Assembly (NCBI RefSeq): GCF_003334305.1
Contig: NZ_QOWS01000017.1
Strand: one strand, 5' to 3'
Length of the DNA stretch: 64,000 bases
Source of the DNA: Escherichia coli
Lineage (GTDB): Bacteria > Pseudomonadota > Gammaproteobacteria > Enterobacterales > Enterobacteriaceae
Part shown: in pieces, positions 53 to 15,176 of the stretch
Layout: the number at the start of each line of letters is the position of its first letter
How positions within the stretch are numbered: position 1 is the first letter of the stretch
The notes under the pieces: model-generated
What the model saw: the letters and a program-made list of their open reading frames with translations, nothing else
Told to the model about the DNA's origin: nothing
Databases searched by the model: none
Position numbers and translations under genes: made by a program

Positions 53-373
53 ATGAAAACCCCCTTACCGCCCGTCTTACGCGCAGCCCTTTACCGTCGC
101 GCTGTCGCCTGTGCCTGGCTGACCGTGTGCGAACGTCAGCACCGCTACCCGCATCTCACCCTTGAATCACTGGAGGCGGCCATCGCCGCTGAGCTGGAAG
201 GCTTTTATCTGCGCCAGCACGGTGAGGAAAAAGGGCGTCAGATAGCCTGTGCCCTGCTGGAAGATTTAATGGAATCCGGCCCCCTGAAGGCCGCGCCGTC
301 GCTGTCCTTTCTCGGGCTGGTTGTGATGGATGAACTCTGTGCCCGTCACATAAAAGCGCCGGTACTGCACTGA
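53..373 (+). CDS. hypothetical protein, P4-like satellite early region (106 aa)
   Basis: ORF with GGAGG RBS a few nt upstream of ATG; co-directional with and 15 bp upstream of the alpha-type primase gene; no motif recognised. Confidence 0.5.
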
Positions 374-387
374 AGGAGAACAACACC

Positions 388-2721
388 ATGAAAATGAACG
401 TAACCGCCACCGTCAGCCATGCACTCGGCCACTGGCCGCGTATTCTCCCGGCGCTGGGGATTCAGGTGCTGAAAAACCGTCATCAGCCCTGTCCGGTCTG
501 TGGCGGGAGTGACCGCTTCCGTTTTGATGACAGGGAGGGGCGCGGCACCTGGTACTGCAATCAGTGTGGTGCCGGTGACGGCCTGAAACTGGTTGAAAAG
601 GTGTTTGGTGTTTCCCCGTCCGACGCGGCCGCAAAGGTGGCTGCCGTGACCGGCAGCCTGCCACCGGCTGACCCGGCAGTGACGGCCGCCGCCGTTGCTG
701 AAACAGACGCTGCCCGGAAGAACGCCGCCACACTGGCACAAACCCTGATGGCGAAAACCCGTACCGGAACCGGTAACGCCTACCTGACCCGCAAGGGCTT
801 TCCCGGCCGGGAATGCCGGATGCTGACCGGCACACACAGAGCCGGTGGCGTGAGCTGGCGCGCCGGTGACCTTGTGGTGCCACTGTATGACGACAGCGGC
901 GAACTGGTTAACCTTCAGTTAATCAGTGCTGACGGCCGTAAGCGCACCCTGAAAGGCGGACAGGTCAGGGGCACCTGTCACACCCTTGAAGGACAGAATC
1001 AGGCCGGAAAACGTCTGTGGATAGCGGAGGGATACGCGACCGCACTTACCGTACATCACCTGACCGGTGAAACGGTGATGGTGGCGCTTTCTTCCGTGAA
1101 CCTCCTTTCTCTGGCCAGCCTTGCCCGGCAGAAGCATCCGGCCTGTCAGATTGTCCTTGCCGCAGACCGTGACCTCAGCGGTGACGGCCAGAAAAAAGCC
1201 GCCGCAGCCGCAGATGCGTGTGAGGGCGTTGTTGCCCTGCCGCCGGTCTTCGGTGACTGGAATGATGCCTTCACGCAGTACGGCGGGGAGGCCACCCGTA
1301 AGGCCATTTACGATGCCATCCGGCCACCGGCTGAAAGCCCGTTCGACACCATGAGCGAAGCAGAGTTTTCCGCCATGAGTACCAGCGAAAAGGCCATGCG
1401 TATCTATGAGCATTACGGTGAGGCGCTCGCGGTCGATGCCAACGGCCAGCTTCTGTCTCGCTATGAAAATGGTGTCTGGAAGGTGCTGCCGCCACAGGAC
1501 TTTGCCCGGGATGTGGCCGGGCTGTTTCAGCGTCTGCGCGCGCCGTTCTCCTCCGGGAAGGTGGCCTCCGTGGTGGACACCCTGAAGCTGATTATTCCGC
1601 AGCAGGAAGCCCCCTCCCGCCGCCTGATTGGCTTTCGTAACGGTGTGCTCGACACACAGAACGGCACGTTCCACCCGCACAGTCCGTCACACTGGATGCG
1701 CACCCTGTGCGATGTGGATTTCACCCCGCCGGTGGACGGTGAAACGCTGGAGACCCACGCCCCCGCGTTCTGGCGCTGGCTTGACCGTGCCGCCGGTGGC
1801 CGTGCGGAAAAACGCGACGTGATTCTGGCCGCACTGTTTATGGTGCTGGCAAACCGCTATGACTGGCAGCTCTTTCTGGAGGTGACCGGTCCCGGCGGCA
1901 GCGGCAAAAGTATCATGGCCGAAATAGCCACCCTGCTGGCCGGGGAGGATAACGCCACGTCGGCCACCATTGAGACGCTGGAATCCCCGCGTGAACGTGC
2001 CGCGTTAACTGGCTTCTCACTGATACGCCTGCCGGACCAGGAAAAATGGAGCGGCGACGGTGCCGGACTCAAGGCCATCACCGGCGGCGATGCGGTGTCC
2101 GTTGACCCGAAATACCGGGATGCATACTCCACGCATATCCCGGCGGTGATTCTGGCCGTGAACAATAACCCGATGCGCTTCACCGACCGCAGCGGCGGCG
2201 TGTCACGCCGGCGGGTGATTATTCACTTCCCGGAACAGATAGCCCCGCAGGAGCGCGACCCGCAGCTTAAGGACAAAATCACCCGCGAGCTGGCGGTCAT
2301 CGTGCGTCACCTGATGCAGAAGTTCAGCGACCCGATGCTCGCCCGGTCACTGCTTCAGTCCCAGCAGAACTCAGACGAGGCGCTGAACATCAAACGGGAT
2401 GCCGACCCGACGTTTGATTTTATCGGCTATCTGGAAACCCTGCCGCAGACCAGCGGCATGTATATGGGGAACGCCAGTATCATCCCGCGTAATTACCGTA
2501 AATACCTCTATCACGCCTATCTGGCCTACATGGAGGCAAACGGCTACCGGAATGTACTCAGTCTGAAAATGTTCGGGCTGGGGCTGCCGGTGATGCTGAA
2601 GGAATACGGACTGAATTACGAGAAGCGCCATACCAAACAGGGGATACAGACCAACCTGACGCTGAAAGAGGAAAGCTACGGCGACTGGCTGCCAAAATGT
2701 GACGACCCTGCAACAACCTGA
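388..2721 (+). CDS. P4 alpha-type bifunctional primase/helicase
   Basis: 777-aa ORF with AAGGAG RBS; N-terminal zinc ribbon CPVCGG...YCNQCG; Walker A GPGGSGKS at about aa 500; architecture and length match satellite phage P4 alpha as I recall it. Confidence 0.9.
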   Translation: MKMNVTATVSHALGHWPRILPALGIQVLKNRHQPCPVCGGSDRFRFDDREGRGTWYCNQCGAGDGLKLVEKVFGVSPSDAAAKVAAVTGSLPPADPAVTAAAVAETDAARKNAATLAQTLMAKTRTGTGNAYLTRKGFPGRECRMLTGTHRAGGVSWRAGDLVVPLYDDSGELVNLQLISADGRKRTLKGGQVRGTCHTLEGQNQAGKRLWIAEGYATALTVHHLTGETVMVALSSVNLLSLASLARQKHPACQIVLAADRDLSGDGQKKAAAAADACEGVVALPPVFGDWNDAFTQYGGEATRKAIYDAIRPPAESPFDTMSEAEFSAMSTSEKAMRIYEHYGEALAVDANGQLLSRYENGVWKVLPPQDFARDVAGLFQRLRAPFSSGKVASVVDTLKLIIPQQEAPSRRLIGFRNGVLDTQNGTFHPHSPSHWMRTLCDVDFTPPVDGETLETHAPAFWRWLDRAAGGRAEKRDVILAALFMVLANRYDWQLFLEVTGPGGSGKSIMAEIATLLAGEDNATSATIETLESPRERAALTGFSLIRLPDQEKWSGDGAGLKAITGGDAVSVDPKYRDAYSTHIPAVILAVNNNPMRFTDRSGGVSRRRVIIHFPEQIAPQERDPQLKDKITRELAVIVRHLMQKFSDPMLARSLLQSQQNSDEALNIKRDADPTFDFIGYLETLPQTSGMYMGNASIIPRNYRKYLYHAYLAYMEANGYRNVLSLKMFGLGLPVMLKEYGLNYEKRHTKQGIQTNLTLKEESYGDWLPKCDDPATT

Positions 2722-2728
2722 CCCACCT

Positions 2729-2754
2729 GACCGGCATCTGCCGGTCTTTTTTTA
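2729..2754 (+). terminator. rho-independent terminator after primase gene
   Basis: GACCGGC-atct-GCCGGTC hairpin followed by T7 run, 8 bp after the stop codon. Confidence 0.65.
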
Positions 2755-2770
2755 TCCCTGAATTCCCCGA

Positions 2771-3070
2771 AGGTGAACAATCCACTGTTCACCCTTCACC
2801 GTATATTCACCCGTTATCACACTGAAATTAAAAGAGAAAAACGAAAGGTGAACAGTGTGAACAATCAAATCAAAAAAAACTTTTTTCTTCCTGAGTGATT
2901 TCAGCACGGGAAATTAATCCCCTGCACAAGTCACACCGGCAGAATGCCGGAGGTGAAGAATCGAATGTTCACCCTTCACCCATTATTCACCACCTATCCA
3001 ACTGAAATAAAAGGAGAAAACAGAAAGGTGAACAGTGTGAACAGTTCTTTCGAAAAAAAATTTTTTTCTT
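2771..3070. repeat. crr-like replication region: two ~120-bp direct repeats carrying TGTTCACC/GGTGAACA octamers
   Basis: Units at 2771-2890 and 2951-3070 (period 180 bp) align nearly base for base; each has at least three copies of the P4 type I iteron octamer in both orientations and ends in an A8/T8 tract. Confidence 0.75.
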
Positions 3071-3184
3071 ATTTTTAATTGTGCGAAAAACAAGCGACAC
3101 ACGCAGTGTGTATAGATATGTGTATAGTTATATTTTTTGAATATTATAATGTATTACAAATCAATGTGTTAGCTTGTAATATTC

Positions 3185-3203
3185 ACTCCTATTATCGGCA
3201 CCA
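3185..3203 (+). other. att core copy (tRNA-Thr 3'-end-like, ACTCCTATTATCGGCACCA)
   Basis: 19-nt string matching the T-arm-to-CCA end of thrW as I recall it; no full tRNA upstream; second copy at 15262-15279. Confidence 0.6.
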
Positions 3204-3808
3204 TCAAGAAAATCAATAACTTAGCTTAACTTCTCTAAGAAATTGTATCTTCTGTTATCACTTACAAACGCCTATACGTTGTTATGGGCTTTGGTAGTGT
3301 AACACGTATGGGCGAGTAGTTCCCAGGCTCAACCTCGTAACAAGTTCCTTTGAAGCTGGAAGACGTGCCACCGTCTCTAAACCTTCTACCAAAACTCTTA
3401 GCAAGATGTTCCACACCTGGCGCGGTGTCCAATGATGCTACACGTCGTGAGACGTTGCAGAGGATAAACAGGCTAAATGATGGGAAGAGTTTTAAGTGCA
3501 ATAGTGGATTAAAGCCCACCTCTTCAAAACCTAACTTGATCGGGAAAGAATCAAGCTCTAGCACGGTTTCGTCCACCGGAGTACAACGGGTGCCTGATAA
3601 GAGAAGAACTGCTAAGACTTCATAGCTTTTGTGAAAAAGCCCTTTTTAGTGGATACGCCTACGGCGCTTATTTTTTGGTATAACCATCAAAGGCGCTTTA
3701 TGGCTCCTATTGTCTTGAAAATGTATCTTTACTTGTATTGTGTTTTATGCGTAGTCTCCCTGTGTAGTATGTAACTTGTTAATTTTCATATGAATACAGA
3801 GGCACACG

Positions 3809-3967
3809 ATGAAAAACATTGCAGCTATCAAACGGAATAACCGCAAGATTCACGCTCGTAAGTTCCTGTCTACGCCAGAAGGAAAAGCCTGGCTAGAGCG
3901 TAAACAGAGAGAAAACGAAGAAAGAAAACTCCTTAGTGAGTTGAAATGGCTTAGAGAGGATTTCTGA
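3809..3967 (+). CDS. small basic protein (52 aa), hypothetical
   Basis: ATG with AGAGG-like RBS; Lys/Arg-rich; below the size cut-off of the ORF track; translated by hand. Confidence 0.3.
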   Translation: MKNIAAIKRNNRKIHARKFLSTPEGKAWLERKQRENEERKLLSELKWLREDF

Positions 3968-4260
3968 AAATCTCCAGAACGCAACAGGACGCATTCTAAC
4001 GCTGTTTTCATTACTCGGTATAGGGATTATAGGTGATGTGTGTTTAATGCGTCTGTGAGCTTGTTTTGTGCCTTATTTTGCATTTTCATAATGCAGGAGA
4101 GAACACGGAAAGCCTTAAAATTAATTATTGGGGTATTTAAGGCTATTTTTAGGTTATTTAAGGGTATTAAACTTGATTTAATTGATTGAAATATAAACAG
4201 ATAATTATGTATCTTATTGATTTATAAGGTTATTTTTAAATAAAGGTAAATAAAAAATAA

Positions 4261-4300
4261 ATAGCCATAAATAGCTATAAATACATCTAAATACCTATAT
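4261..4300. repeat. four tandem 10-bp A-rich units (ATAGCCATAA / ATAGCTATAA / ATACATCTAA / ATACCTATAT)
   Basis: Read directly; 10-bp period equals the helical repeat, suggesting bent DNA or a phased binding site. Confidence 0.6.
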
Positions 4301-4713
4301 CCCTTCCCTTATGGCTAGATTGCGAGAAGTGCTTAACGCGATTTTCAGCGCCCCCCGATCTGGAAAATCCAGAATCCCCAAATATCAGCAAGGAATTTTC
4401 TTGCGTAATCAACATCGTTTTTACCTATTAAATCATTACACAGAAAGCCTTTCTGTAATGTCTCTCACTAAACTTTCACTAAACACGAGAATGATCGGTT
4501 TTATGTCGGATCAGATGCTAGAAATAGCACCACGTCTCACAAGGGCTGTAAGCGATGAAACCAGTGTTTATGCGGGTGCAGGTCAAAATATAGGCCAAAA
4601 TACATTTAACATAATAAACGTAATATGCACTAAGGAACACATAGAACGCCTTGAGTTGATGTATCAGGGGAAAAGTGGTGGATTTTTTACGTAGGAGCAC
4701 GAGAGGGCTTCTA

Positions 4714-4741
4714 TTGACTTTTGTATGCTATGAAATATAAT
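4714..4741 (+). promoter_or_regulatory. candidate sigma70 promoter (TTGACT-16-TATAAT)
   Basis: Consensus-like hexamers with 16-bp spacer; no convincing ORF downstream, so it may drive a non-coding transcript through the repeat region. Confidence 0.35.
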
Positions 4742-5088
4742 AGAAGGTTTTTTTATGTTGATAGTGATTGCACATTAAAGATTGAAAGCAAATTTAAACA
4801 TAAATTTTCAACACGTGAAAGAGAACTTGTTCGACAAATGATAAAACGTTTATTGAGCAACAATTTTGCAGTGATGCGCTATATGCCGAATTACACAAGG
4901 CTTTGCGAAAGTGATGTAAAAGTGAAGAAAGTAAGAATTGCAACTTTAAGCTACTTTTCATTGAATTTTTTAGTATGGAATTACACAGGAATAAGTTAGG
5001 GATATTCTATGATTTACACAGGGAATATAGGGGGATTATGGCACACACATAGAAAGACATTACACAAAGTGCTATGTGACAAATGGAT

Positions 5089-5300
5089 GTAACGAGAGGT
5101 TACATTCAGCTATCTGAAATGCTCTCTGTAAGAAAGTTGGTAGTAACGATATGTTACATAGACTAATTATTGAATGTAACGATATTACACATCGGTAGTA
5201 ACGATACGTTACATCGACTAATTATTGAATGTAACGATATTACACATCGGTAGTAACGATACGTTACATCGACAGATGATTGGATGTAACGAAAGGTTAC
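5089..5300. repeat. array of seven 15-bp palindromic sites GTAACGA(t/a)A(t/c)GTTAC (iteron/operator/centromere-like)
   Basis: Sites start at 5089, 5143, 5176, 5198, 5231, 5253 and 5286; spacings 54/33/22/33/22/33 bp are all near multiples of 11 bp; includes a 56-bp unit repeated in tandem. Confidence 0.8.
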
Positions 5301-6398
5301 ACAATAAGACTATATTATTTATAATACTAAATAAAACTATATTAGATTATTAATTAGATCATAATAATATTCTTTATATCTATATATATGATCTTTTGCC
5401 TTCCGGCGTTAGCTTCACTCCCTGGCAAGCAGCCTTACTCCGCTACCTTTCGGGCTACGTTGGCTGGCCCGTTCCGCTCACACCGAAAGCAAAGCGTTAC
5501 TTTCTTCGTGTAACTATCGTGGCGGTAACGCCCACGAAGAAATACTATTGCGCTGTGCGCAGAAGAGTAATCACCTAACCAATCATAGATTGCTTATGTG
5601 TTAACTCTCTCTACCTCTTAATTCCACTTCCTACATTTAATAACTCTGTTATTCTCTGTAGTTGTGTAATTACTCGAAGAGAGAGCGGCTAAAGCTCAAT
5701 TACACTCTGCTTTCCTCGTGTAAGTTCACTAAGCCTCAATACAATTTCACTTCCTACATTCTGTAGTCGTGTAATTGTTTTCGGTGGAAAAGCCAGAGGC
5801 GACACCGAAAGAGAATTCTGATCTTATTAATCTTATCTATCTTAGTTAATCTTCTTACTTTATCTACTTTATTATTAATAATAGCTTTATAAGCTCTGTG
5901 TAGCTCTCTGACGCAAGAAACAGCATTCAGGAAGGGAATCACCTTAGAAAAGGTGTTCTTTGCGTCATAATGTGTTTTATGAAGGATTCAGAGGTGTTTC
6001 ATAACAGGAATGTATAGAGGATATTTTAATTAATTAAAAATAAGGGGTCTAAATGCTTCTCTAACAACATTAAGCAGGGTAGGGAATGGAAACGCATTGC
6101 CTACATATAATAAGCTCACTACAGGGCTTTACAGAGCGTTTTATAAAGTGACTCTCTGTTTTATATTTACCATTACCTTTTCATATACCTAACAAATACA
6201 AAATAAGCCCCTTCAATAAGCCTCTGGCGAGCGAAACAGCCATTAGATAAGGGAATGTATTGCTTTTATCAAAATCTCGTCAGAATGCGATTGAGAGTGT
6301 TTTAGCGGATAATGAAGAATAGCACTACATAGAAGAGCACGAATTGTTAAGCAAAATCATAACATACTGAAAAAGATCAGTTTTTTTGTGAAAAGGTA

Positions 6399-6427
6399 TT
6401 GACAAACGTCTCTTTCTGTGCAATAAT
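6399..6427 (+). promoter_or_regulatory. candidate sigma70 promoter (TTGACA-17-AATAAT) for the cargo operon
   Basis: Consensus -35 and near-consensus -10; about 125 nt upstream of the first RBS-preceded ORF, with a hairpin-rich leader. Confidence 0.5.
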
Positions 6428-6554
6428 AGGTATTAGAGGGGACAGGAATAGATTCTTATCCTCTAAATAATTAAACCAATGCACCGCACTTTGAAGCCCA
6501 AGAGGCTTGCAAGGTGTTTTTTCTTTTAACCAAATCGAATAAGGAGGCTAATTA

Positions 6555-6731
6555 ATGAAATATTTCACTCCACAGGATGTAGTAGAAGCCTGGAAACGTG
6601 GTGAGATCAACCGCTTTAAAGTAAGGATGTATAGAAACACCGCTCGCCGTTGTGGTTATCCAGAGCGTGAAAAATGTTTTGACGATGCACTGAAAATTAT
6701 TGATGAACTGCGTAAAGCTGAGAAAGAATAA
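6555..6731 (+). CDS. hypothetical small protein (58 aa)
   Basis: AAGGAGG RBS 6 nt upstream of ATG; first gene after the promoter; translated by hand. Confidence 0.5.
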   Translation: MKYFTPQDVVEAWKRGEINRFKVRMYRNTARRCGYPEREKCFDDALKIIDELRKAEKE

Positions 6732-6753
6732 TAGACAAGAGAAGGAGAAAACT

Positions 6754-6921
6754 ATGAGCGAAACTAAGAAACCAATTCCGCGCACTTACCTTCACGTTGA
6801 CCCTGAAATCTTCAAGGTTTTATTTGCTGAAGCCAAGAAAAGGCAAATTATGGTCAGTGATTTGATGTTAGAAATCATTACTGAAGCAGCAGAGAACATC
6901 AAACAAAAAAAGGGTAAGTGA
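6754..6921 (+). CDS. ribbon-helix-helix-like DNA-binding protein (55 aa)
   Basis: GAAGGAG RBS; N-terminal beta-strand-like segment (RTYLHV) followed by two short helices, an Arc/CopG-type pattern; inferred from sequence pattern only. Confidence 0.5.
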   Translation: MSETKKPIPRTYLHVDPEIFKVLFAEAKKRQIMVSDLMLEIITEAAENIKQKKGK

Positions 6922-6974
6922 TCCTCATTCACTTTAGTAGCGCATTAAGCGTGATTTATAAGGAGATGATTCTA

Positions 6975-7718
6975 ATGTCTAAAATTAAATTGATTCGTGA
7001 AAAATACCAGTATGTTGATAAACAAACAGGAGAAATTAAAGACCGAACTTTGAATATACCGCATTACTTTTGTGAGATTGAATTTATCTACTCCTCAAGT
7101 GTTGATGGTGGAAAAGTTAAGTTTAGTGCAGAAATGCAAAAATTATATTGCTATGTTTCAGATTGGGAGAAATCAGGGGGGATATGTTTTGAAACACAAA
7201 CGAAGTTAAGTAAAGTTTGTGGCTGTAGCCGTAAGACAGTTAATGAACTGATTGGTCTTATGATTAAAATCGGTCTTTTAGAAGAGGTCGGAGAACGAAT
7301 TCCAAAACGTCCTTTAAAATTACGTGCGCTACCTCTCACAGATGCACATATTACTCCCCCAGGAGAATCATCACTCTCTGATCTTTCTGAGGCAGAAGAA
7401 GCACAGGAACAACCTAAAGGCCATAAACAGCCTTCTTTTGATGTTCTTGATGATTGGGATGCGCCTTTACCGTGGGAGACGGAAGAAACACCTGTTTCAT
7501 CAAGTGAAAAGGTAGCTAATGATAATGAGGAGGATGTATTAGAGAATTTTGCCTCTCTTATCATCCAGGAGAAACACACAAGAACAGGAGGAGCATCATT
7601 TATTGAGTTTGCAAATTCACTAGCTTATAGATACGGGCTAAAACGACCAAATGGTATTGAGGCATATTTTTCTAAGAATTACCCAAATGTATATGATGAA
7701 TTTGATATTCCCTTTTAA
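6975..7718 (+). CDS. winged-helix DNA-binding protein with acidic linker (247 aa), possible replication initiator or regulator
   Basis: AAGGAG RBS; helix-turn-helix-like segment LSKVCGCSRKTVNELIGLMIKIGLLEE; Asp/Glu-rich middle; stop overlaps the next RBS. Confidence 0.55.
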   Translation: MSKIKLIREKYQYVDKQTGEIKDRTLNIPHYFCEIEFIYSSSVDGGKVKFSAEMQKLYCYVSDWEKSGGICFETQTKLSKVCGCSRKTVNELIGLMIKIGLLEEVGERIPKRPLKLRALPLTDAHITPPGESSLSDLSEAEEAQEQPKGHKQPSFDVLDDWDAPLPWETEETPVSSSEKVANDNEEDVLENFASLIIQEKHTRTGGASFIEFANSLAYRYGLKRPNGIEAYFSKNYPNVYDEFDIPF

Positions 7719-7748
7719 TAAGGAGGACTATGATTCAATATTTAGTAA

Positions 7749-8009
7749 AAAAATCAAGTAGACAGAATTCAGTGTAATGACACAGGAAAACGCATCTACG
7801 AAACACTTGCTTACCTCTATAAAGGAAAGCCAACACCGCTAAAATATAGCGATGTGTTACATCGAGCAGGGTGCTCTGAAGCTGGTTTAAAATTCTGGCT
7901 GAAACAGCTATCAAATTTCGGTGTTATTGAAATGAAAGAGCTGTCTTTTTCTACATTCAATCTCAAAAGATTAGATAAAGAAATAGAATTCATCTATTCC
8001 ACTCTCTAA
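7749..8009 (+). CDS. second winged-helix-like ORF lacking a canonical start (frameshift/slippage or pseudogene candidate)
   Basis: Open frame encoding ...YSDVLHRAGCSEAGLKFWLKQLSNFGVIEM...; an AGGAGG-ATG at 7730 opens a 15-codon ORF in another frame that crosses an A7 run (7747-7753) directly before this frame opens. Confidence 0.3.
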   Translation, partial: KNQVDRIQCNDTGKRIYETLAYLYKGKPTPLKYSDVLHRAGCSEAGLKFWLKQLSNFGVIEMKELSFSTFNLKRLDKEIEFIYSTL

Positions 8010-8141
8010 AATCTCTCTATGTAATTAAAATATAAAAGGAAAACATTATTATGATAGTAGCTATGTATTGGTTATTGTTCTTTCTCACGTTAGAAGCATA
8101 CTTTGGGGTGTTTTCCTTTAAAAGAAAAGGAAAAGTAAATA

Positions 8142-8558
8142 ATGGCAAAAAGAAAAAACAACGTTGTTAAGAAAATCGGTGATTCAGCTTCTCTTCTAAG
8201 TAAACCTAAACCTAAATCTATTCTAAGACGTAAAGACTTTAAAGAGCTAGTTACGCTCACCAAGCAAAATAGCGCCCCTGGCGAATGGAAAACAGAGATC
8301 ATAGAACATTCTCCCTCTGTGCCTTGTGGAGATGAATTTAACGCCTTGCAAGAAATCTTATCTTCAACACCTGGCGTATTCTGGAAACCTAGAAAAAGAA
8401 AAGAGTATATCGTTGATAGCTCTGATTTACGCAAATACCAGATTTTAGGATTTGAAGATTATAACCACTACGTCGGTTATCTCGCCACCAATGGCCTAAA
8501 TAATTTAGTTCCTGAATTCCAAATTTTAGATAATGCTGATCACTATGGAGACTTTTAA
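8142..8558 (+). CDS. hypothetical protein (138 aa), basic N-terminus
   Basis: ATG preceded by AAAGGAAAAG; no motif recognised. Confidence 0.5.
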   Translation: MAKRKNNVVKKIGDSASLLSKPKPKSILRRKDFKELVTLTKQNSAPGEWKTEIIEHSPSVPCGDEFNALQEILSSTPGVFWKPRKRKEYIVDSSDLRKYQILGFEDYNHYVGYLATNGLNNLVPEFQILDNADHYGDF

Positions 8559-8559
8559 T

Positions 8560-8898
8560 ATGAACAAAAACACGTATGACACAATTTATTCACTAATTAA
8601 TTATTATGAGGATGATTACCTCCTGCCTTTAAACCGCGCTGAACTTGAAGCATACAAAGAAAACACGCCAGGGGCGCTAAATGAGGCGTTTAAACACTGG
8701 GATTTAGCTGTGAATGCCTTTGAGCACCTTTCTAAAAGAGTAGAGATGCTCTGTAAGCGTGAAAACGCATACCTGACAGCCGATCAGATATGGGAGCTAT
8801 CAAACTGGATAGAAGATATTGAATCTGATGTTCGCTATGTAGGGGATGGCCTGGTTGAATTAGCTCAACGCTTAGGCGCTACTATCACAGAAGAATAA
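8560..8898 (+). CDS. hypothetical acidic protein (112 aa)
   Basis: ATG 8560 with GGAG 7 nt upstream, 1 nt after the previous stop; an in-frame upstream ATG at 8533 would overlap the previous gene. Confidence 0.5.
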   Translation: MNKNTYDTIYSLINYYEDDYLLPLNRAELEAYKENTPGALNEAFKHWDLAVNAFEHLSKRVEMLCKRENAYLTADQIWELSNWIEDIESDVRYVGDGLVELAQRLGATITEE

Positions 8899-8927
8899 AA
8901 AAAGCAACAAAAAAGTTGTAAAATATC

Positions 8928-8956
8928 TTGACATTCCATCTATTGTATGTTAATAT
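8928..8956 (+). promoter_or_regulatory. candidate sigma70 promoter (TTGACA-17-TAATAT)
   Basis: Consensus -35; located in a 350-bp gap inside the operon. Confidence 0.45.
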
Positions 8957-9093
8957 AATTATATAGGGGTGATTATTTTTCCTTTATTGGTTCGATATTA
9001 AAAATTCTTCCTGTCATTAAAGGGGAGTAAAATCTCCGCTCCCCGCTTCTCCTCCTTAAGTAAATACTGTGTCATTATACCTCTTTTTTCCTT

Positions 9094-9125
9094 TGTTATG
9101 CATACATCTTGGAGTATGCATAACA
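9094..9125. promoter_or_regulatory. 12-bp perfect inverted repeat TGTTATGCATAC-N8-GTATGCATAACA (operator or RNA hairpin)
   Basis: Read directly; lies between the 8928 promoter and the next gene. Confidence 0.6.
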
Positions 9126-9165
9126 TAGGGTAATTACATAGGTATGAGTTAATAAAAGGCGGCTC

Positions 9166-9189
9166 TAAATGCTGCCTTTTATTTTGCCC
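9166..9189 (+). terminator. weak intrinsic terminator or attenuator
   Basis: AGGCGGC-tctaaat-GCTGCCT stem with one G-U pair, followed by TTTTATTTT. Confidence 0.4.
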
Positions 9190-9247
9190 GTTATGCAACT
9201 TAAAAGTTGTATTTCTTACTTTAAAAAAGGTAACAAGGTTTATATAA

Positions 9248-9460
9248 ATGTTGTTTTTAAACGATAAAGAGCAAATCATCAAGTATAAAGATGAAATGCT
9301 GAAAATTAATCCACAAATTACCGAAATGGTAGCTAAATACGCTGGGTGTTCTGTCGAGGAAGTAGAAAGATGTGTTGAAAAATATTTTTCTCCTTCTACT
9401 CCGTCTACACCTTCCCTTAATGAATTAATCAAATTAAAAGCTAAGGAGATTACTAAATGA
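9248..9460 (+). CDS. hypothetical protein (70 aa)
   Basis: ATG with AAGG upstream; stop overlaps the start of the next gene (ATGA). Confidence 0.5.
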   Translation: MLFLNDKEQIIKYKDEMLKINPQITEMVAKYAGCSVEEVERCVEKYFSPSTPSTPSLNELIKLKAKEITK

Positions 9461-9819
9461 TTATTGATTTAGACACTCTGTTTCCAGTTAGAAAGACTTT
9501 CACAGATATTGTAAGTTATTGTACTGATCCGTTTGCCTCTGTAGAAAGCAAGGTTTTTGCTTCTCTTCCTGCTGATGTTGAGTGCGGCGACTTGATCACC
9601 AGTACTGGCGCTAAATATGAATCAGGAGATGATATCTATGTTGTTATGAGTGAATTTGTAACGGCTGGAGAAAACAAGCCTGTAGATGTGCTACGTAGTA
9701 ATGCTGGTCTTGTCTGCATCAAAGCTGATGCGCTGAATGCTGTAAGTGAAGCAGCAAAAACAGCATTAATTAAAAAAGGCTTCCAGCTTGAAGGGTTCCA
9801 TTCTGTTTTCACTTCTTAA
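9457..9819 (+). CDS. hypothetical protein (120 aa)
   Basis: AAGGAG RBS; translationally coupled to the upstream ORF. Confidence 0.55.
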   Translation: MIIDLDTLFPVRKTFTDIVSYCTDPFASVESKVFASLPADVECGDLITSTGAKYESGDDIYVVMSEFVTAGENKPVDVLRSNAGLVCIKADALNAVSEAAKTALIKKGFQLEGFHSVFTS

Positions 9820-9837
9820 TAAAAGGAATAATAATAA

Positions 9838-10869
9838 ATGATTCTAGGTAATGATTACGTTGATTTAGCTCCGCTTTTCCAGGCACACAGCACTAGAAAC
9901 TTTCTGCTCTCTACCCTCGACTTCACTGATCCGGTGGGCGTTAGTTCTCATAAAGTAGCTGTTTCTCAGCTTGTCGAAAGCAACGAATCTCTGTTCAACA
10001 AAGAAACCTCTCGTTTCTCTTCTGAACACAATGTTACTAAGCGTGAACAAGGTAAAGAATGGCTGATTGAAATCCCGTATTTTCTTCGTGAAGATGTGAT
10101 CCGTCCTTCTGATGTTCAAGGCAAGCGTAAGCCTGGCACTGATTTTCAGGAAACACTCACTGATATCTATGCGGAATATATCGCTAAACACCACGTAGCG
10201 TATCAGCGTACAAAAGAGAGCGTGTTGGCTGCATCTCTGTTTAGCGGTAAAACTTACACGCCTAAAACTGATGATGTTCTTATCGAGTGGGGCAAGCTGT
10301 TTAACGTGGCACCTATGAAAGCCACCTTGAACGCTTCCAGCACTGACACAATGACCGTTTTCAAGCAATTTGACCAGCTTGCTACGGATATGATTGCTAA
10401 GGCACAAAACCAGGCTGCAACCATTGAGCGTGTTGTTGTGTTCTGTAAACCTGCGGCATTCAACGCTATTCGTTACAGTGTTGGTATGGTCAATGCTTTC
10501 CAATATGCAAGCCCTGTAGACGATGCCAACGTGGTGTTTAATGTGCGTTCCCTGCTACCAGGTGTAACTACTTTCACCATTCCAGGAACTAACATTGACC
10601 TGATCAAAGTGACTGATCCGCTACACCTTGCACATATGGCTTCTGATGCGGTTGCTGTGCCTAAATTCGCTAAGGGGGCAGGTGTTTACCAATCTATCTA
10701 TGGGGCAGCTTCCAGCACCTTTGAACTGATCAATGCCGCTCCTGCTGAGGTGTATAGCTATAGCTATGAATCTTCTTCTCGTGGTGATGCTGTTAACGTT
10801 GTTACAGAGAATAGCCAGATGGTGGTAAACCACGGCGTTGGTTTCTCCGTTCAAATCACTGTTAAATAA
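9838..10869 (+). CDS. hypothetical protein (343 aa), no motif recognised
   Basis: Long ORF in AT-rich DNA with AAGGA RBS; followed by a strong terminator. Confidence 0.65.
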   Translation: MILGNDYVDLAPLFQAHSTRNFLLSTLDFTDPVGVSSHKVAVSQLVESNESLFNKETSRFSSEHNVTKREQGKEWLIEIPYFLREDVIRPSDVQGKRKPGTDFQETLTDIYAEYIAKHHVAYQRTKESVLAASLFSGKTYTPKTDDVLIEWGKLFNVAPMKATLNASSTDTMTVFKQFDQLATDMIAKAQNQAATIERVVVFCKPAAFNAIRYSVGMVNAFQYASPVDDANVVFNVRSLLPGVTTFTIPGTNIDLIKVTDPLHLAHMASDAVAVPKFAKGAGVYQSIYGAASSTFELINAAPAEVYSYSYESSSRGDAVNVVTENSQMVVNHGVGFSVQITVK

Positions 10870-10887
10870 TATTTTAACGTGTAATAG

Positions 10888-10925
10888 AGGCGTGGCGTGA
10901 ATAACACGCTTCGCCTTTTTTTATT
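10888..10925 (+). terminator. rho-independent terminator
   Basis: Nested hairpin AGGCG-tg-GCGTG-aataa-CACGC-tt-CGCCT followed by a T-rich run. Confidence 0.65.
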
Positions 10926-10955
10926 TATTTTTAAATTTTGAGAGGTGATTAAAAT

Positions 10956-11159
10956 ATGGAAGTGATTCTGAAATCAAAAAATGGTGTACACGTTTATTTA
11001 GATGCTAATGATTCAAGAGGCTTGTTAAATCTGAAATATCTATGTTCTCTCTTGGATGTTCCATATGAAGGCGTAAAAGCCCGAATGTTCAGATTAAACG
11101 AGAGTATTGATCAAGCTCTACACCATTTCTTAAGCAAAGAAGGTGGTAAAAATGATTAA
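10956..11159 (+). CDS. hypothetical protein (67 aa)
   Basis: GAGAGGTGA RBS; 15 bp upstream of the 612-aa gene. Confidence 0.45.
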   Translation: MEVILKSKNGVHVYLDANDSRGLLNLKYLCSLLDVPYEGVKARMFRLNESIDQALHHFLSKEGGKND

Positions 11160-11173
11160 TAAGGGGATTTTAA

Positions 11174-13012
11174 ATGTTAGAAATTAACACTTCTAAAATT
11201 AAGAACACAGTAACATTTAGTGTAGATAAAGACAGCTTGAAAAAAGCGAAAGACTCTATTACAGGCTTAAAGGAATTCACAGAAAACATCAAGCCAGCTA
11301 AATTAAGGTTTGATAGTGTCACTAAAGGCTATAAGAAAGCACAAAGCGAAGTAGACAAGATTGCTCAACAGAAAGCTAAAACAGAAAAGCAGAATCAAAG
11401 AGCACAAGCTGCCGCAGCAAGAGCACAGGCAAGGCAACAGACACAAATAGCAGCACGTAAAGAGAAAGCAGAATTAAAGCTCCTCGATGTGTCAAGCTCT
11501 ATCAGTGCAATGCACCGCCTCTCTGTAGCGGAACAATACAAAGCTATTGCACAGGCTAGAGAGATAGCAAAACAATATGAGCAAGGGGCTATCTCGCTTG
11601 CACGTATGAATAGTCAGATGAAACGCCTACAACAGCAACAACGTAAGATTAATGGCAACAGAAAAGCTCAATTAGCCCCCGTTAAGGGAGGAGGATCAGG
11701 GAATTCCGCCACGATGGGTGCTCTGTTATTTGGAGGCGCTACAGCGGCTGCTGGCGTGATGGCTGTTAGTAAAGCGTCGGAGTTTGTTAGTAACAGTTTC
11801 GCTAACGCAGAGACACAAGGTGAGCTAATTCAACGTGCAAGGCTTGGCGGTGTAGACGTTAACCAGATGTACAACATTACAGAATGGGCCTATAGAAACG
11901 GCGTTGACTCTATGATGGGTGATCAAGGGGCTAGGAAATACCTGGATCAGATGAAAGATGTTAGGGAACGTGCCGCAAAATCCTATAGTGAAGCTGAATA
12001 TGTAGTCGATAAAAAAACTGGTAAAGGCGGCGAATGGAAAGGCGGTGATAACGCTATTAATGAACTTCTAAACATCGGTGTTATTAACAAGAGCGACCTT
12101 AAAAAATTTGCTGATAATCCAGCCGGATTAATTTCTAAGGCTGTTAATGGAATGATGAAAAAAGGGTTTTCAGACTCCCAAATTGGACAACGTTTAGAAG
12201 ACCTGGGTGATGATTTGATGCTTACATCAAAATATTGGCAACGTTCCGTTAAAGATGTACAAACAAGCATCGAGCAGCAAAAAGCCTCTGGAAAATGGCT
12301 AACAGAAACACAGCAAGATTCTATTGTTAAATTCAGAGAACTAAACAGACAGCTTTCACAGCTTTCTGATGCAAGACAAGTAGCATTTGTAGACGGCTTT
12401 ATGAAATCTCTCGATCCAAAAGTAACGGAAGAGTTTATGAAAAACCTTTCTAATCTCACTCCGTATTTTACAAAGCTGGGAGAAGCTACAGGAAGTCTCT
12501 TTGAAGCTATTATGAAGATTGTAAACTGGTTTAATCGTAATGATGATAAGACAGATGCTATTCAGAAAAATTTAGGTGATGCACCGCCATTAAGCAATGA
12601 AGGAATGAAACAGAATCTTTCTAATCTCGTTCCTGATCAATATAAAGGCGCTGGCACCGGAACAACTAAGCCAGATAACAGCAATTCCCTGTTTAACACT
12701 ATTAAGGGATTGCTTTTCGATGATAAGTCTTCTTCTGTGTCAGATGTAAAAATGTCAGTCAGCGAAGCACCGATAACCAATCTCAAACAGGGCGCTTTAA
12801 ATAATCTTGCAATGACAACTCCGGCTTATAATTTATCTCCTGTGTTTAATCTGAATCCTACATTTGAAGTGGTAACAGAGGTTCCTCTTACTATTAATTC
12901 TGACACATCAAGATTAAGCGATTATGTGGATTTTACAGCGAGATCAAGTCGGGATAGCTTCTTGAAATCATTAACATTAACCAGCTTATCAGGACAATCT
13001 AACGGCGGGTAA
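11174..13012 (+). CDS. large coiled-coil protein with central Gly-rich hydrophobic segment (612 aa); tape-measure-like or membrane-interacting, function unknown
   Basis: AAGGGG RBS; N-terminal approx. 150 aa rich in Q/A/R/K/E; segment GGGSGNSATMGALLFGGATAAAGVMAV; no NTP-binding or catalytic motif seen. Confidence 0.7.
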   Translation: MLEINTSKIKNTVTFSVDKDSLKKAKDSITGLKEFTENIKPAKLRFDSVTKGYKKAQSEVDKIAQQKAKTEKQNQRAQAAAARAQARQQTQIAARKEKAELKLLDVSSSISAMHRLSVAEQYKAIAQAREIAKQYEQGAISLARMNSQMKRLQQQQRKINGNRKAQLAPVKGGGSGNSATMGALLFGGATAAAGVMAVSKASEFVSNSFANAETQGELIQRARLGGVDVNQMYNITEWAYRNGVDSMMGDQGARKYLDQMKDVRERAAKSYSEAEYVVDKKTGKGGEWKGGDNAINELLNIGVINKSDLKKFADNPAGLISKAVNGMMKKGFSDSQIGQRLEDLGDDLMLTSKYWQRSVKDVQTSIEQQKASGKWLTETQQDSIVKFRELNRQLSQLSDARQVAFVDGFMKSLDPKVTEEFMKNLSNLTPYFTKLGEATGSLFEAIMKIVNWFNRNDDKTDAIQKNLGDAPPLSNEGMKQNLSNLVPDQYKGAGTGTTKPDNSNSLFNTIKGLLFDDKSSSVSDVKMSVSEAPITNLKQGALNNLAMTTPAYNLSPVFNLNPTFEVVTEVPLTINSDTSRLSDYVDFTARSSRDSFLKSLTLTSLSGQSNGG

Positions 13013-13046
13013 TTCCCGCCATAACATTACAAGGAAAATTATTATT

Positions 13047-13760
13047 ATGGCGACCGCCGGGATTTTAACCATACGTGCAGCAAATACTCCAGAACAACAC
13101 GTTCAGGCTGTTTACAAAGCAGAACAAGATATAAATTCTACAAAAAACGAAAATAGCAAAGCTAATAAAACAAAAGGAGAGAACGGATTTGCTATTGTTA
13201 CCAGTGGCTTGGCATCTTCTGGCAATGACGTTTATGAAAATTATATGGCCCTGGCCTTTGACAGTGTAGACGATGTGAACGTGAGACGTTCGGCAGATGT
13301 CACAAGCTACCCCGTAGAAAATGGTGCTACTGTGTCTGATCACGTTCAAATTAAAAACAATAAGTTTTCTCTTAAAGGAAGGATCACTGAAACACCGATT
13401 AAAAGCGATCCTGGCTTGTTAAAGAGTGCAGGGGTGAACGGGAACAGAAGATCATTAGCCATAGACTACTTGAATCAGATTATGGACAGTAGACAGCCTT
13501 TTCTTCTTGTTACAGAAAATAAAACTTTTGAGAACGTTGTTTTAACAGGCATCGAATACACAGAAGAGGCAAGCGAATCCCTGGTATTTGATCTTAGCTT
13601 TGAGCAGATCAGATTAGTTTCTTATGGCACTGTATCCACTATTGCACTTAAAACACAACCATCTAAGAACATCGGGGCGAATATGAAAAAACGTGTTAAC
13701 ACTGAAAAATCAAGTAGTGAAGGTGAAGACACTATTACTCCTGCCTTTAAGCAGAAATAG
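13047..13760 (+). CDS. hypothetical protein (237 aa)
   Basis: AAGGA RBS; last gene of the + strand operon, convergent with the integrase. Confidence 0.6.
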   Translation: MATAGILTIRAANTPEQHVQAVYKAEQDINSTKNENSKANKTKGENGFAIVTSGLASSGNDVYENYMALAFDSVDDVNVRRSADVTSYPVENGATVSDHVQIKNNKFSLKGRITETPIKSDPGLLKSAGVNGNRRSLAIDYLNQIMDSRQPFLLVTENKTFENVVLTGIEYTEEASESLVFDLSFEQIRLVSYGTVSTIALKTQPSKNIGANMKKRVNTEKSSSEGEDTITPAFKQK

Positions 13761-13803
13761 CCGTAAACGCCTCTAAAACGCTCTGTAACGATGTAATTAT
13801 AAA

Positions 13804-13840
13804 AGAGGCTGCCAATCTATGTTGAAGCCTCTTTATTGTG
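13804..13840. terminator. bidirectional terminator between convergent operon and integrase
   Basis: AGAGGCT-N15-AGCCTCT hairpin flanked by T-rich runs on both strands. Confidence 0.5.
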
Positions 13841-13841
13841 T

Positions 13842-15176
13842 TTATGGCGTTGTTTTACGCCTTAAATTTGATTTTTTATTGATTGATAAGCCTTTCTCTA
13901 TTTCAGGGTAGCGTAGAAGCTCAATATAGTTTTTAAGCTCTACTGGAGAAGCTGCATTCTTGCTATATGTGCGGAATGTCTCTGTATTGCCGCGTGTATG
14001 GCCCAGGAGAAGGGCGATCCTGTCTTCTGGAATTTGATTTCGATCAAGAAGCTGTGCTACTCCGTGTCTCAGAGAATGAAACACTTTCCTTTCTGTTCCC
14101 TTTTCCCCTAAAGCCTTTCGTTTAGCTCTTGTAAATCTCTGCGTGTGCCACGTGGAACGTTTACCATCAGCACGCTCTGTAATGCTGGCGTGATAGAACA
14201 AAAAGCCATTATGAGGCTTTTCACGCAGCGACAACACCAACGGAGTGATAAGGCTATGTACAGGCACAACACGTGCCGCAGCTTTCGTTTTTCCCTGTGT
14301 GATTTCAAAACACAGCACACCTTCGATCTCTTTCACATCGTCTATTGTGAGACTTGCTATCTCATTGATCCGCATACCTGTATATAAACCGATAAGACAC
14401 AAAGCCATCATTTCTTTGTTTTCTGCTGAATTACCGGAAAATACTTGCAACACCTGCAATAGCTCTTTGTTAGAAAATGCCTCGTAGCTCTCTCTACTTT
14501 GTGCCACATCAAGCCTATGCCCTCGCCAGGGGGAGAGCGCCCTTTCTGGCGCATCGTGGTAACGTGATGAAGCTAACTCCCATAGCTGGGCTATTGGGCT
14601 GATATAATTTGCAATTGATTGTTGTGAAAGAGTTTTTTGCATGTGTTCTATCCAGCCTGTAACAGTGGTGCGGCTCACATCTTGCAATGCAATATCAGGC
14701 TTTTTACGGTAGGAGAGAAACATCTCTACCGCTTTTCTTGCCTTAGCTAAAGTGGCTGGCTTCTTCTTCGTGCTGTTAATTGTCAGGTAGATTTCAAGAA
14801 TTTTAAGCAATGACGGACACGAAGACGCTGTATCTTGCATTCTGGTAGCTGTTTTGGCGTATTTAGCCTTACTGCGTAACAGCTCCAGCGTGTTCTCTAT
14901 TGTGCTGTTTACAGGGGCGACACTCTCCCGTAGGCAATGGTATTCATCTGCAATCTGATCACGCTTTCTACGTGCAACACGAAGATTATTTGTGTGTAGA
15001 CTTCTGACAAACGTCCTTTTTCCTTCAAAAAAGGGCTGCATATACACAGGCAGCGTGATCCTTAAATAGTAGTTACCGTAAGAATCACAGATTAAGTATT
15101 GGTTAGGCTTGTATCTCATAAAATCTCCGGCTAAAGTGTCGGAGCGTTTGTAATGTGAAAATTGATTGTAACGCAT
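13842..15176 (-). CDS. tyrosine-type site-specific integrase
   Basis: Box I GMRINE, box II HSLRHG, LLGH, and a C-terminal tyrosine in TFRTYS; ATG at 15176 (a TTG at 15206 gives the 454-aa track ORF); sits directly inside the right att copy. Confidence 0.85.
   Translation of the reverse strand: MRYNQFSHYKRSDTLAGDFMRYKPNQYLICDSYGNYYLRITLPVYMQPFFEGKRTFVRSLHTNNLRVARRKRDQIADEYHCLRESVAPVNSTIENTLELLRSKAKYAKTATRMQDTASSCPSLLKILEIYLTINSTKKKPATLAKARKAVEMFLSYRKKPDIALQDVSRTTVTGWIEHMQKTLSQQSIANYISPIAQLWELASSRYHDAPERALSPWRGHRLDVAQSRESYEAFSNKELLQVLQVFSGNSAENKEMMALCLIGLYTGMRINEIASLTIDDVKEIEGVLCFEITQGKTKAAARVVPVHSLITPLVLSLREKPHNGFLFYHASITERADGKRSTWHTQRFTRAKRKALGEKGTERKVFHSLRHGVAQLLDRNQIPEDRIALLLGHTRGNTETFRTYSKNAASPVELKNYIELLRYPEIEKGLSINKKSNLRRKTTP

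Follow-up and report, generated by a model that had tools for sequence, protein, structure and literature searches.

A candidate RepA_N-like replication initiator with an SSB-like tip in a 12.1-kb integrative island of Escherichia coli

Initiators of the RepA_N family combine an iteron-binding N-terminal domain with a host-specific C-terminal domain (PMC7145576). Barth et al. placed RepA of the Vibrio cholerae satellite PLE, the N-terminal domain of which is PDB entry 4RO3, in this family on structural grounds; PLE RepA has no BLASTP-level similarity to the staphylococcal proteins, and what RepA_N proteins recruit, and how, is discussed in the same work as an open question (PMC7145576). Initiator and origin modules of PLE show a matching pattern of exchange, and the phage ICP1 encodes an origin-directed nuclease, Odn (Gp88), in which a RepA_N-like N-terminal domain, 42% identical to PLE1 RepA_N, is fused to T5orf172 and which cuts the PLE origin (PMC8263062). 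Here we describe an Escherichia coli locus that compares with both systems. It lies at positions 6754-8009 of a 64,000-nucleotide stretch (the window; assembly GCF_003334305.1, contig NZ_QOWS01000017.1), where a 55-amino-acid (aa) and a 247-aa protein are encoded ahead of a disrupted small gene, and it is probably the module for replication and regulation in an integrative island of 12.1 kb. The 247-aa protein is likely a RepA_N-like initiator with its origin at 5084-5390.

Like PLE RepA, the 247-aa protein is encoded on an integrative satellite-type island, has no helicase or primase domain, is accompanied by candidate cognate semi-palindromic repeats in a non-coding region, and belongs to a module in which initiator allele and origin are exchanged as one (PMC7145576, PMC8263062). 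[quoted passage not shown] With staphylococcal RepA (pSK41/pTZ2162; PDB 4PTA, 4PT7, 4PQL and 5KBJ) and the DnaD N-terminal domain, the protein has in common a predicted fold with an N-terminal extension, a likeness in structure alone at 15-18% identity. It also resembles staphylococcal RepA in joining a putative N-terminal iteron-binding domain to a distinct C-terminal domain, whereas the staphylococcal protein belongs to plasmids of Gram-positive hosts, has unrelated C-terminal domains and has no SSB-like tail reported. As in RepE, pi and other Rep_3 initiators, repeats of iteron type are found close to an AT-rich region and a winged helix would make the contact with DNA, but the 247-aa polypeptide has a single winged helix and no Rep_3 match, the second winged helix being that of a separate gene which is dispensable.

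Putative initiator domain, C-terminal tip and candidate origin

Between 6400 and 8200 the window matches the E. coli strain A7 chromosome (NZ_CP028767.1) at 100% identity; in that record the 55-aa open reading frame (ORF) is labelled "hypothetical protein" and the 247-aa ORF "transcriptional regulator", and nothing is annotated from the 247-aa gene to the next gene. The 247-aa gene is laid out as follows, with confidence given as the predicted local distance difference test (pLDDT).

6975-7718, plus strand: 247-aa ORF, with its own AAGGAG upstream
6975-7358, plus strand: putative initiator N-terminal domain, residues 1-128; beta-hairpin and winged helix, ending in the conserved ALPLTDAHITPP motif
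7359-7526, plus strand: acidic disordered linker, residues 129-184; 15 D/E against 3 K/R; pLDDT < 50 over residues 140-182
7527-7691, plus strand: small helical C-terminal domain, residues 185-239; pLDDT 88-96; varies among family members
7692-7718, plus strand: C-terminal tip YDEFDIPF and stop, resembling the SSB C-terminal tail

Pfam HTH_36 matches residues 57-102, in agreement with the winged-helix-like segment that a first-pass annotation of this DNA had read from the sequence, and the acidic linker named there is borne out by the residue counts and by its disorder in the model. Scanned against PHROG, the 247-aa protein gave weak matches to seven families (E 7.5e-7 to 4e-3), all in the category 'DNA, RNA and nucleotide metabolism'; six are replication initiation families (protein or O-like) and one is a DnaD-like helicase loader. 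In the AlphaFold2 model (pLDDT 79.8), residues 1-126 form a confident N-terminal domain, residues 140-182 are disordered and residues 185-241 make up a helical C-terminal domain. Its best Foldseek matches are 4PQL, 4PT7, 5KBJ and 4PTA, all staphylococcal RepA_N initiators, and the N-terminal domain is structurally closest to PLE RepA and RepA_N, the match taking in the N-terminal beta-hairpin extension. The N-terminal domain is thus predicted to adopt a RepA_N/DnaD-N-terminal-domain fold. Sequence models fall short of RepA_N, and we therefore base membership on this predicted fold. When the PDB was searched with a profile of the initiator family, generic winged-helix regulators alone came back, the matches of a single-sequence PDB search were designed repeat proteins, which we rejected as spurious, and neither the 247-aa protein nor family members matched Rep_3, the model containing one winged helix.

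The family is small. Close homologues are 247-251 aa long and named "transcriptional regulator", homologues overall span 229-272 aa, and an exhaustive search of 1.84 billion representative proteins recovered just 41 relatives. Aligned, the relatives show a variable N-terminal winged-helix domain, a near-invariant ALP(L/F)TDAH(I/V)xPP, an acidic low-complexity linker, and then one of several C-terminal domains.

What stays constant at the far end is the tip. Among 120 close homologues, 102 end in DIPF and eight in DLPF, and divergent full-length family members end in [DE]F[DE][ILP]PF regardless of their C-terminal domain, with variants such as DDFDIPF, EFELPF, DEFDPIPF and EFEDLPF elsewhere in the family. 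The initiator is the sole ORF in the window with such a tip, and the phage inny, introduced below, has none. According to PMC5872125, the conserved C-terminal hexapeptide of E. coli SSB is DDDIPF and binds many partner proteins, including DnaG. The 247-aa protein has the corresponding features, namely a terminal [IL]-P-F with acidic residues before it, behind a flexible, disordered linker. It differs in that its tail is attached to a winged helix predicted to bind double-stranded DNA sequence-specifically, whereas that of SSB is attached to a tetramer with an oligonucleotide/oligosaccharide-binding fold. The linker and the ...DEFDIPF tip may therefore imitate the host SSB tail, and an SSB-like tail held at a specific double-stranded site would recruit SSB-binding replication proteins (e.g. 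PriA, DnaG primase or the chi subunit of DNA polymerase III) to the origin. We propose such recruitment tentatively, as one possibility suggested by the motif; we found no precedent for DIPF-tipped initiators within the literature searched.

The sites to which the initiator would bind are candidates in the non-coding DNA upstream.

5084-5303, plus strand: iteron-like array with five palindromes GTAACG-N4-GTTAC, at 5089, 5143, 5198, 5253 and 5286
5305-5390: very AT-rich stretch (~85 nt) directly after the array, a candidate DNA-unwinding element

The array, which also holds two degenerate copies and is built of 55-nt units, lies 1.7 kb upstream of the 247-aa gene and is conserved in other island copies. 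In the whole 64-kb window GTAACG-N4-GTTAC is confined to 5089-5300, with 10 strand-matches against 0.72 expected. The initiator allele and the array co-vary. The island of strain MS6192 (L007) encodes an identical 55-aa protein and keeps the C-terminal half of the initiator, while the N-terminal domain is different. When window 4858-13866 was compared with this locus by blastn, only two segments failed to align. One, at ~5250-5321, falls within the array; the other, at 6967-7325, is the cassette for the N-terminal domain and stops at the ALPLTDAH motif. In place of ~5250-5321, a different palindrome, TAGKTCAYWRTGARCTA, is present six times in MS6192, for the most part 22 nt apart; it is not found in the window. 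Among sampled copies, all seven islands with the N-terminal domain of the window (type A) have three to five type-A palindromes and zero type-B iterons, and both intact islands with that of MS6192 (type B) have six type-B iterons and two residual type-A palindromes. In a third type-B copy the region is gone, lost to IS3. Two further initiator alleles adjoin their own distinct repeats. These observations point to the array and the AT-rich stretch as a candidate origin that holds binding sites for the initiator N-terminal domain. The 247-aa protein would then act as a RepA_N-type, PLE-RepA-like initiator, its N-terminal winged-helix domain, probably dimeric, binding the GTAACG-N4-GTTAC palindromes beside the AT-rich unwinding region.

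The replaced cassette of MS6192 also has TACCCCTATCAA-type repeats (L007 12652-12750), like the ACCCCTATTAATCCTGATAGGGGT palindromes beside allele P0176 (L019 1691-1887), and from this likeness the origin regions look like mosaics of several iteron sets.

The island and the phages that share its genes

The module sits in an element that we compared with two phages, inny, which is virulent, and muut.

~3182-15280: integrative island, 12.1 kb, bounded by att direct repeats and homology limits
9838-10869, plus strand: homologue of major capsid proteins (Phage_cap_E); 19% identical to the major head protein of inny (E 4e-6)
11174-13012, plus strand: 612-aa tape-measure homologue; phrog_16051, E 4e-54
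13047-13760, plus strand: 237-aa Dit-like tail/baseplate protein; PF21821; 61% identity to inny gp106, E 1e-91
13842-15119, minus strand: tyrosine integrase of the island, from annotation and Pfam

Imperfect att direct repeats, ACTCCTATTATCG(G)CACCAT, are located at 3185 and 15262, and homology to the copies at tRNA-Thr (L008) and tRNA-Gly (L007) begins and ends there. The G+C content is 38.0% in the island and 37.4% in inny, compared with 49% in the rest of the window and chromosome. Gene order is constant: an ORF-poor left arm with the array is followed by genes for proteins of 58, 55, 247 and 92 aa, four small genes, the Phage_cap_E capsid, a 67-aa protein, the 612-aa and 237-aa proteins and the integrase. 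This 12-kb order, with intact integrase and att repeats, occurs at at least three chromosomal sites in hundreds of genomes, and part of the locus was matched in 671 of 5,426 complete E. coli genomes (about 1 in 8). Contigs of 12.3 kb in Logan end in tRNA-derived repeats of 17-23 nt, which fits an excised circle and an integrated copy alike.

The structural genes point to one group of phages. The best phage matches of the 612-aa protein are tape-measure proteins of phi92-like Stephanstirmvirinae; aligned with inny gp105, its first 66 residues are 56% identical (the first 25 nearly so throughout) and the remainder 26%. The inny gene for gp106, the homologue of the Dit-like protein, stands directly after the inny tape-measure gene. 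For the island capsid protein no close relative turned up among phages, the best matches being in phages of Pseudomonas and Limnohabitans at 23-25% identity. A 120-aa island protein showed no significant match to the inny decoration protein, PHROG and Pfam scans recognised no terminase or portal among the island proteins, and NCBIfam and PADLOC found nothing in ten island proteins besides a JetC match, which we rejected as spurious. Integrase, att repeats and homologues of capsid, tape-measure and Dit proteins, without a full recognised virion gene set, are features of a satellite, and the profile looks like that of a satellite, or an interference island, aimed at phi92-like virulent phages. 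The element is apparently undescribed and is annotated almost wholly as hypothetical proteins.

The phages in turn carry parts of the island module. Window 6742-7367 is 97.6% identical in nucleotide sequence to inny, and window 6742-6983, which covers the 55-aa gene only, is 99% identical to muut. In inny gp184 (367 aa), 124 of the first 129 residues are identical to the island initiator (96%), and the two diverge right after TDAHITPP. From there gp184 continues with a second N-terminal-type domain. In muut gp154 the counterpart of this domain shares 75% identity with island allele P0187, and the first domain of the muut protein shares 43% with allele P0176. The genes for P0176 and P0182 lie in chromosomal islands or island-like contigs. 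The C-terminal domain of gp184 matches MUG113 (E 5e-4), T5orf172 (E 0.13) and phrog_681 "endonuclease" (E 4e-18), and is homologous to "putative homing endonucleases" of ICP1. The type-A N-terminal domain occurs in a single one of 50,697 phage records, that of inny, and the origin region had no match in the phage collection.

The make-up of inny gp184 is Odn-like, in that a DNA-binding domain derived from a satellite initiator is joined to a T5orf172/GIY-YIG-superfamily domain; muut gp154 likewise joins satellite-initiator-type N-terminal domains to T5orf172/MUG113 (GIY-YIG superfamily). Unlike Odn, the coliphage proteins have two tandem N-terminal-type domains and a putative ribbon-helix-helix gene upstream, and the T5orf172 Pfam match is weak, as the values above indicate. 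Virulent phage inny may have captured the 55-aa gene together with the initiator N-terminal domain, the latter becoming fused to a nuclease of T5orf172/MUG113 type; by analogy with ICP1 Odn, that nuclease would cut the island origin. The island is quite possibly a satellite of phi92-like phages that has met Odn-like counter-defence in them. With more reserve, we suggest that it may be an E. coli counterpart of the Vibrio PLE-ICP1 system, that is, one of a set of undescribed 12-kb satellites of virulent phi92-like myoviruses, with a RepA_N-type, SSB-mimicking initiator, in an arms race with phage origin-directed nucleases. In the literature searched we found no report of an Odn-type system in E. 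coli, of E. coli PLE-like elements, or of a link between Stephanstirmvirinae and a satellite.

A different account, which keeps some weight and which we hold to be unlikely, takes the island for a decaying prophage fragment or a defence island, and the inny gene for a homing endonuclease that gained its DNA-binding domain by chance recombination. The structural-gene homologues without recognised terminase or portal speak for this account, as do truncated relatives of the module in islands that hold defence genes. Homing endonucleases of phages typically have domains of the T5orf172 type, and close orthologues of the nuclease are present in just ~6 phage records. The account is at odds with the 12-kb order kept with intact integrase and att repeats at three or more sites in hundreds of genomes, and with a G+C content equal to that of the phage. 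The tape-measure and Dit homologues, moreover, point to one virulent phage group, and it is this group that also carries the captured N-terminal domain. It is also disfavoured by the muut nuclease, whose two N-terminal-type domains resemble other island alleles (P0187 and P0176, at the identities given), and by the second domain of inny, which is P0187-like.

Several observations concern the module in the phages and the island around it. The 55-aa gene stands directly upstream of the nuclease gene in both inny (L012 3013-3195) and muut (L016 2513-2680), at 97-99% nucleotide identity, and the N-terminal domain behind it in muut belongs to another type. As a gene common to both phages, it could regulate the nuclease or serve as a homology arm when cassettes are exchanged. 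The near-invariant motif ALPLTDAHITPP (7325-7364, residues 118-130) falls at each of the two recombination breakpoints observed, the one at 7325, where the type-B island becomes homologous again, and the one at 7367, where identity to inny stops. The motif may be a functional hinge, a hotspot for swapping N-terminal domains, or both.

The left arm of the island (3182-6500) is 3.3 kb long with almost no annotated ORFs and is dense in repeat families, among them ATTACACA at 4888-5070 and 21-nt tandem repeats at 4124-4165. Other copies have a resolvase gene in this arm (L008 11608-12147, and also L009-L011, L025 and L026), in place of which the window copy has a different segment of 470 nt (4387-4858). 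In strain TUM1881 the island capsid gene is interrupted by an IS3-family element (L008 17419-19783), and in strain 165 (L023) IS3 has removed the origin array; individual island copies are decaying. Truncated relatives of the replication module (L017 and L018, allele P0182) stand in islands next to genes known from defence or satellites, namely HamA and a helicase (Hachiman-like), Phage_P4_cII, Peptidase_M78 and a resolvase.

Initiator or ordinary regulators

The gene upstream of the candidate initiator bears on how the module should be read.

6754-6921, plus strand: 55-aa ORF, putative ribbon-helix-helix DNA-binding protein, from a weak MazE7 match

The 55-aa protein has no Pfam match even at E <= 10 and no PHROG match. 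A profile built from seven homologues matched MazE7 (E 0.015) and MazE6 (E 1.1) weakly, both matches spanning strand, helix and helix, the whole of the motif. MazE7 and MazE6 are antitoxins that we take to be ribbon-helix-helix proteins. The ORF that had been read as ribbon-helix-helix-like is thus present on the plus strand where it was placed, and its label is weakly backed. The translational coupling proposed for the 55-aa and 247-aa genes does not hold up: 53 nt separate the stop at 6919-6921 from ATG 6975, and the second gene has its own AAGGAG. GTG 6918, which overlaps the 55-aa stop, was considered as the 247-aa start and rejected in favour of ATG 6975, which has the Shine-Dalgarno sequence and is the annotated start. 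Close spacing is limited to the other end of the 247-aa gene, where 11 nt lie between its stop and the ATG of the small ORF. We infer that the 55-aa protein is an autoregulator or a partner of the initiator; as a small ribbon-helix-helix DNA binder it would regulate the operon.

Both proteins could instead be ordinary transcription regulators (a repressor, an activator of the structural operon) with no role in replication, and the palindromes their operators. The label 'transcriptional regulator' given to the 247-aa protein by the Prokaryotic Genome Annotation Pipeline (PGAP) speaks for this, together with sequence matches limited to HTH_36 and MarR/ArsR-like families, sites that are palindromic like operators, a ribbon-helix-helix partner typical of regulators, and the lack of an ATPase or helicase domain. 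We nevertheless judge it clearly unlikely. The best structural neighbours are the N-terminal domains of initiators (PLE RepA, RepA_N and DnaD), with the N-terminal beta-hairpin extension included, and all seven PHROG matches are replication-related. The array is multi-copy and evenly spaced, with an AT-rich block behind it, far from the promoter, and it is not obvious what a repressor would do with the conserved SSB-like tail. As to the missing enzymatic domains, PLE RepA is also without them (PMC7145576).

A number of points do weigh against reading the 247-aa protein as the initiator of a satellite. The structural match is that of a predicted model, in a fold common to many transcription factors, and PGAP calls the protein a regulator; Pfam RepA_N (PF06970) matches neither it nor 25 family members, which give HTH_36 (18 of the 25) or generic helix-turn-helix families. 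The resemblance to the SSB tail is a motif of eight residues. The island copies in the co-variation count are related, not independent, and the palindromes, 1.7 kb from the gene, could be sites of the 55-aa protein, because two of them persist in type-B islands, the 55-aa protein being identical in both types. The inny genome has no GTAAC-N5-GTTAC palindrome, which with ~0.1-0.3 expected by chance shows just that it has no array, the phage nuclease could simply be a homing endonuclease, and the island capsid protein is just remotely related to that of the phage. Finally, the functions of the island proteins are inferred from comparison. Taken as a whole, an initiator-and-origin module of a phage-related island is probably the best explanation of the locus.

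The disrupted winged-helix gene and the wider setting

Directly behind the initiator lies a gene that is broken in the window.

7730-8009, plus strand: small winged-helix gene, 92 aa when intact, disrupted by one additional A; from alignment with intact alleles

The elements that the first-pass annotation had picked out here, a stranded frame, an AGGAGG-ATG and an A7 tract, are all present. AGGAGG-ATG occupies 7721-7732, the AGGAGG being overlapped by the TAA-TAA of the 247-aa gene (7716-7721). ATG 7730 opens a frame of 15 codons, MIQYLVKKSSRQNSV*, that crosses the A7 tract (7747-7753) and ends one nucleotide out of register, and behind TAA 7746-7748 a frame of 87 codons, 7749-8009, stays open but lacks an early start codon. 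Removal of one A yields the repaired product MIQYLVKNQVDRIQCNDTGKRIYETLAYLYKGKPTPLKYSDVLHRAGCSEAGLKFWLKQLSNFGVIEMKELSFSTFNLKRLDKEIEFIYSTL. In four related E. coli islands a "hypothetical protein" of 91-92 aa is annotated directly after the 247-aa gene, and in the alignment relatives keep AGGAGG and ATG (or TTG), followed by A6 (STK78-E, Res13) or AAAAAG (E14, TUM1881), the A7 tract being found in the window and in strain VTB96935v. With a 96-nt query across the A-run, 156 complete E. coli genomes matched; the A7 allele was exact in two of them, and the other matches listed were all one base shorter. The downstream frame is not a product of chance, as its intact homologues in many genomes indicate. 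From these alignments, 7730-8009 is almost certainly a separate, stand-alone gene frameshifted by one extra A (A6 to A7).

The gene is found beyond close relatives: in a metagenomic relative whose initiator is just 40% identical, the order 61, 55, 249 and 93 aa is kept, and the 93-aa gene has its own ATG and 28% identity to the 92-aa protein. In L009 an internal deletion has cut the small gene to a 17-codon remnant, and in L010 and L011 no gene is called at its position; since other lineages have deleted it, the small gene is dispensable. The family is narrow and restricted to E. coli (27 clusters). The repaired 92-aa protein was modelled with pLDDT 89 and a predicted template-modelling score of 0.79 as a beta-hairpin with a winged helix, and its structural neighbours are generic (CodY C-terminal domain, ArsR, PefI). 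Five database variants (P0122, P0123, P0128, P0131 and P0132) have distinct in-frame deletions of 4-13 residues, all in helix 1 (TGKRIYETLAYLYKGK), which looks like decay that has recurred or like a stretch prone to deletion.

Long-read assemblies often miscount homopolymers, and the A7 allele is rare among the matching genomes, so that an assembly or sequencing error, with the 92-aa gene intact in the real strain, has to be considered. It is very unlikely. Two assemblies, one of orangutan origin (USA) and the other of chicken origin (South Africa), share this A7 and are 99.9% identical over a 1.8-kb query; since the hosts and countries differ and the sequences are nearly identical, an inherited real mutation is likelier than a sequencing error. 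In addition, a 52-aa product (P0146; five Logan member sequences) matches the final 40% of the repaired protein at 100% identity and resembles the remnant GTG-started ORF expected of a disrupted allele.

The idea that the 247-aa ORF and the downstream ORF are halves of one two-winged-helix Rep, separated by mutation or joined by slippage on A7, can be set aside in spite of the tandem winged-helix segments, the A7 run exactly at the frame change and the short peptide EIEFIYS common to both proteins, since the 247-aa protein is full length, ending in the conserved tip of its family and TAA-TAA, no homologue runs on into a second winged helix, the small gene is in frame with its own Shine-Dalgarno sequence and start in all sampled relatives, 154 of the 156 matching genomes are without the exact A7 allele, the shift required is +1/-2, and some lineages have deleted the small gene entirely. 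A fusion of the two ORFs was rejected on the further ground that A7 shifts the frame of the small gene alone and never joins that of the 247-aa gene. Two forms of recoding were also discarded: -1 frameshifting, as the downstream frame would need a +1/-2 shift, and a programmed frameshift or slippage gene, as neither the slippery run nor the out-of-frame arrangement is conserved among homologues, which have A6 or AAAAAG and are in frame. Programmed slippage is accordingly excluded as a conserved mechanism. The first-pass annotation had itself named homologues in which the downstream ORF has a start of its own as evidence against a split gene, and such homologues exist.

By BLASTP, the winged helices of the 247-aa and 92-aa proteins have no detectable sequence similarity, the match between the two proteins being limited to the EIEFIYS peptide (E 0.005). 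EIEFIYS(S/T) occupies initiator residues 34-41 and residues 84-91 of the 92-aa protein (window 7032-7097 and 7937-8002) and lies in a beta-strand of both models, which could mean a shared oligomerisation strand or chance.

Features of the surrounding DNA that complete the picture are these.

388-2721: alpha primase of a P4-like satellite
6399-6427, plus strand: sigma-70-like promoter TTGACA-17-TG-AATAAT, assigned by consensus match alone (11 of 12 consensus positions)
6555-6731, plus strand: 58-aa ORF, first of its string, with no family match; homologous position kept in L009 and L013

The locus has a P4-like satellite on one side and a tyrosine integrase next to the pao operon on the other. 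The P4-like satellite (window 388-3066, continuing upstream in L001 1-8322), in tandem with the island and adjoining its left end, has psu, delta, sid-like and Icd-like genes, a derepression protein and the alpha primase, and beyond psu a UvrD-helicase-domain gene, possibly defence cargo. Two 120-nt repeats at 2767-3066 with TGTTCACC-type inverted repeats also belong to it and are presumably the P4 crr. Rfam and tRNA searches of positions 1-16000 gave no match. The promoter at 6399-6427 precedes the string of 58-, 55-, 247- and 92-aa genes. A second strong sigma-70-like promoter, TTGACA-17-TG-TAATAT at 8928-8956, precedes the string of 70-aa, 120-aa, capsid, tape-measure and Dit genes, which suggests separate transcription units, early (replication) and late (structural).

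The finding as first written is a mundane pseudogene with a misjoined interpretation, and its guess of an iteron-binding initiator is probably right: with a RepA_N-like N-terminal domain, the PHROG matches and the upstream array the 247-aa protein looks like one, though not of the two-winged-helix type. The frameshift itself is of minor importance, a lineage-specific knockout of a dispensable accessory gene that should be annotated as a pseudogene, not as recoding. The neighbouring genes matter more, in an island that is present in about one in eight complete E. coli genomes yet annotated nearly throughout as hypothetical proteins. If the recruitment model is true, the conserved SSB-like tip would be a concrete answer to how a RepA_N initiator without an enzymatic domain recruits the replisome. 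RepA_N satellite replicons and origin-directed nucleases have so far been documented only for PLE and ICP1. If the present reading is true, they would not be peculiar to Vibrio cholerae, and both would be placed in E. coli and in coliphages of a group isolated against extended-spectrum beta-lactamase (ESBL)/AmpC and avian-pathogenic E. coli, where the consequences for phage defence and host range would be testable in a tractable host.

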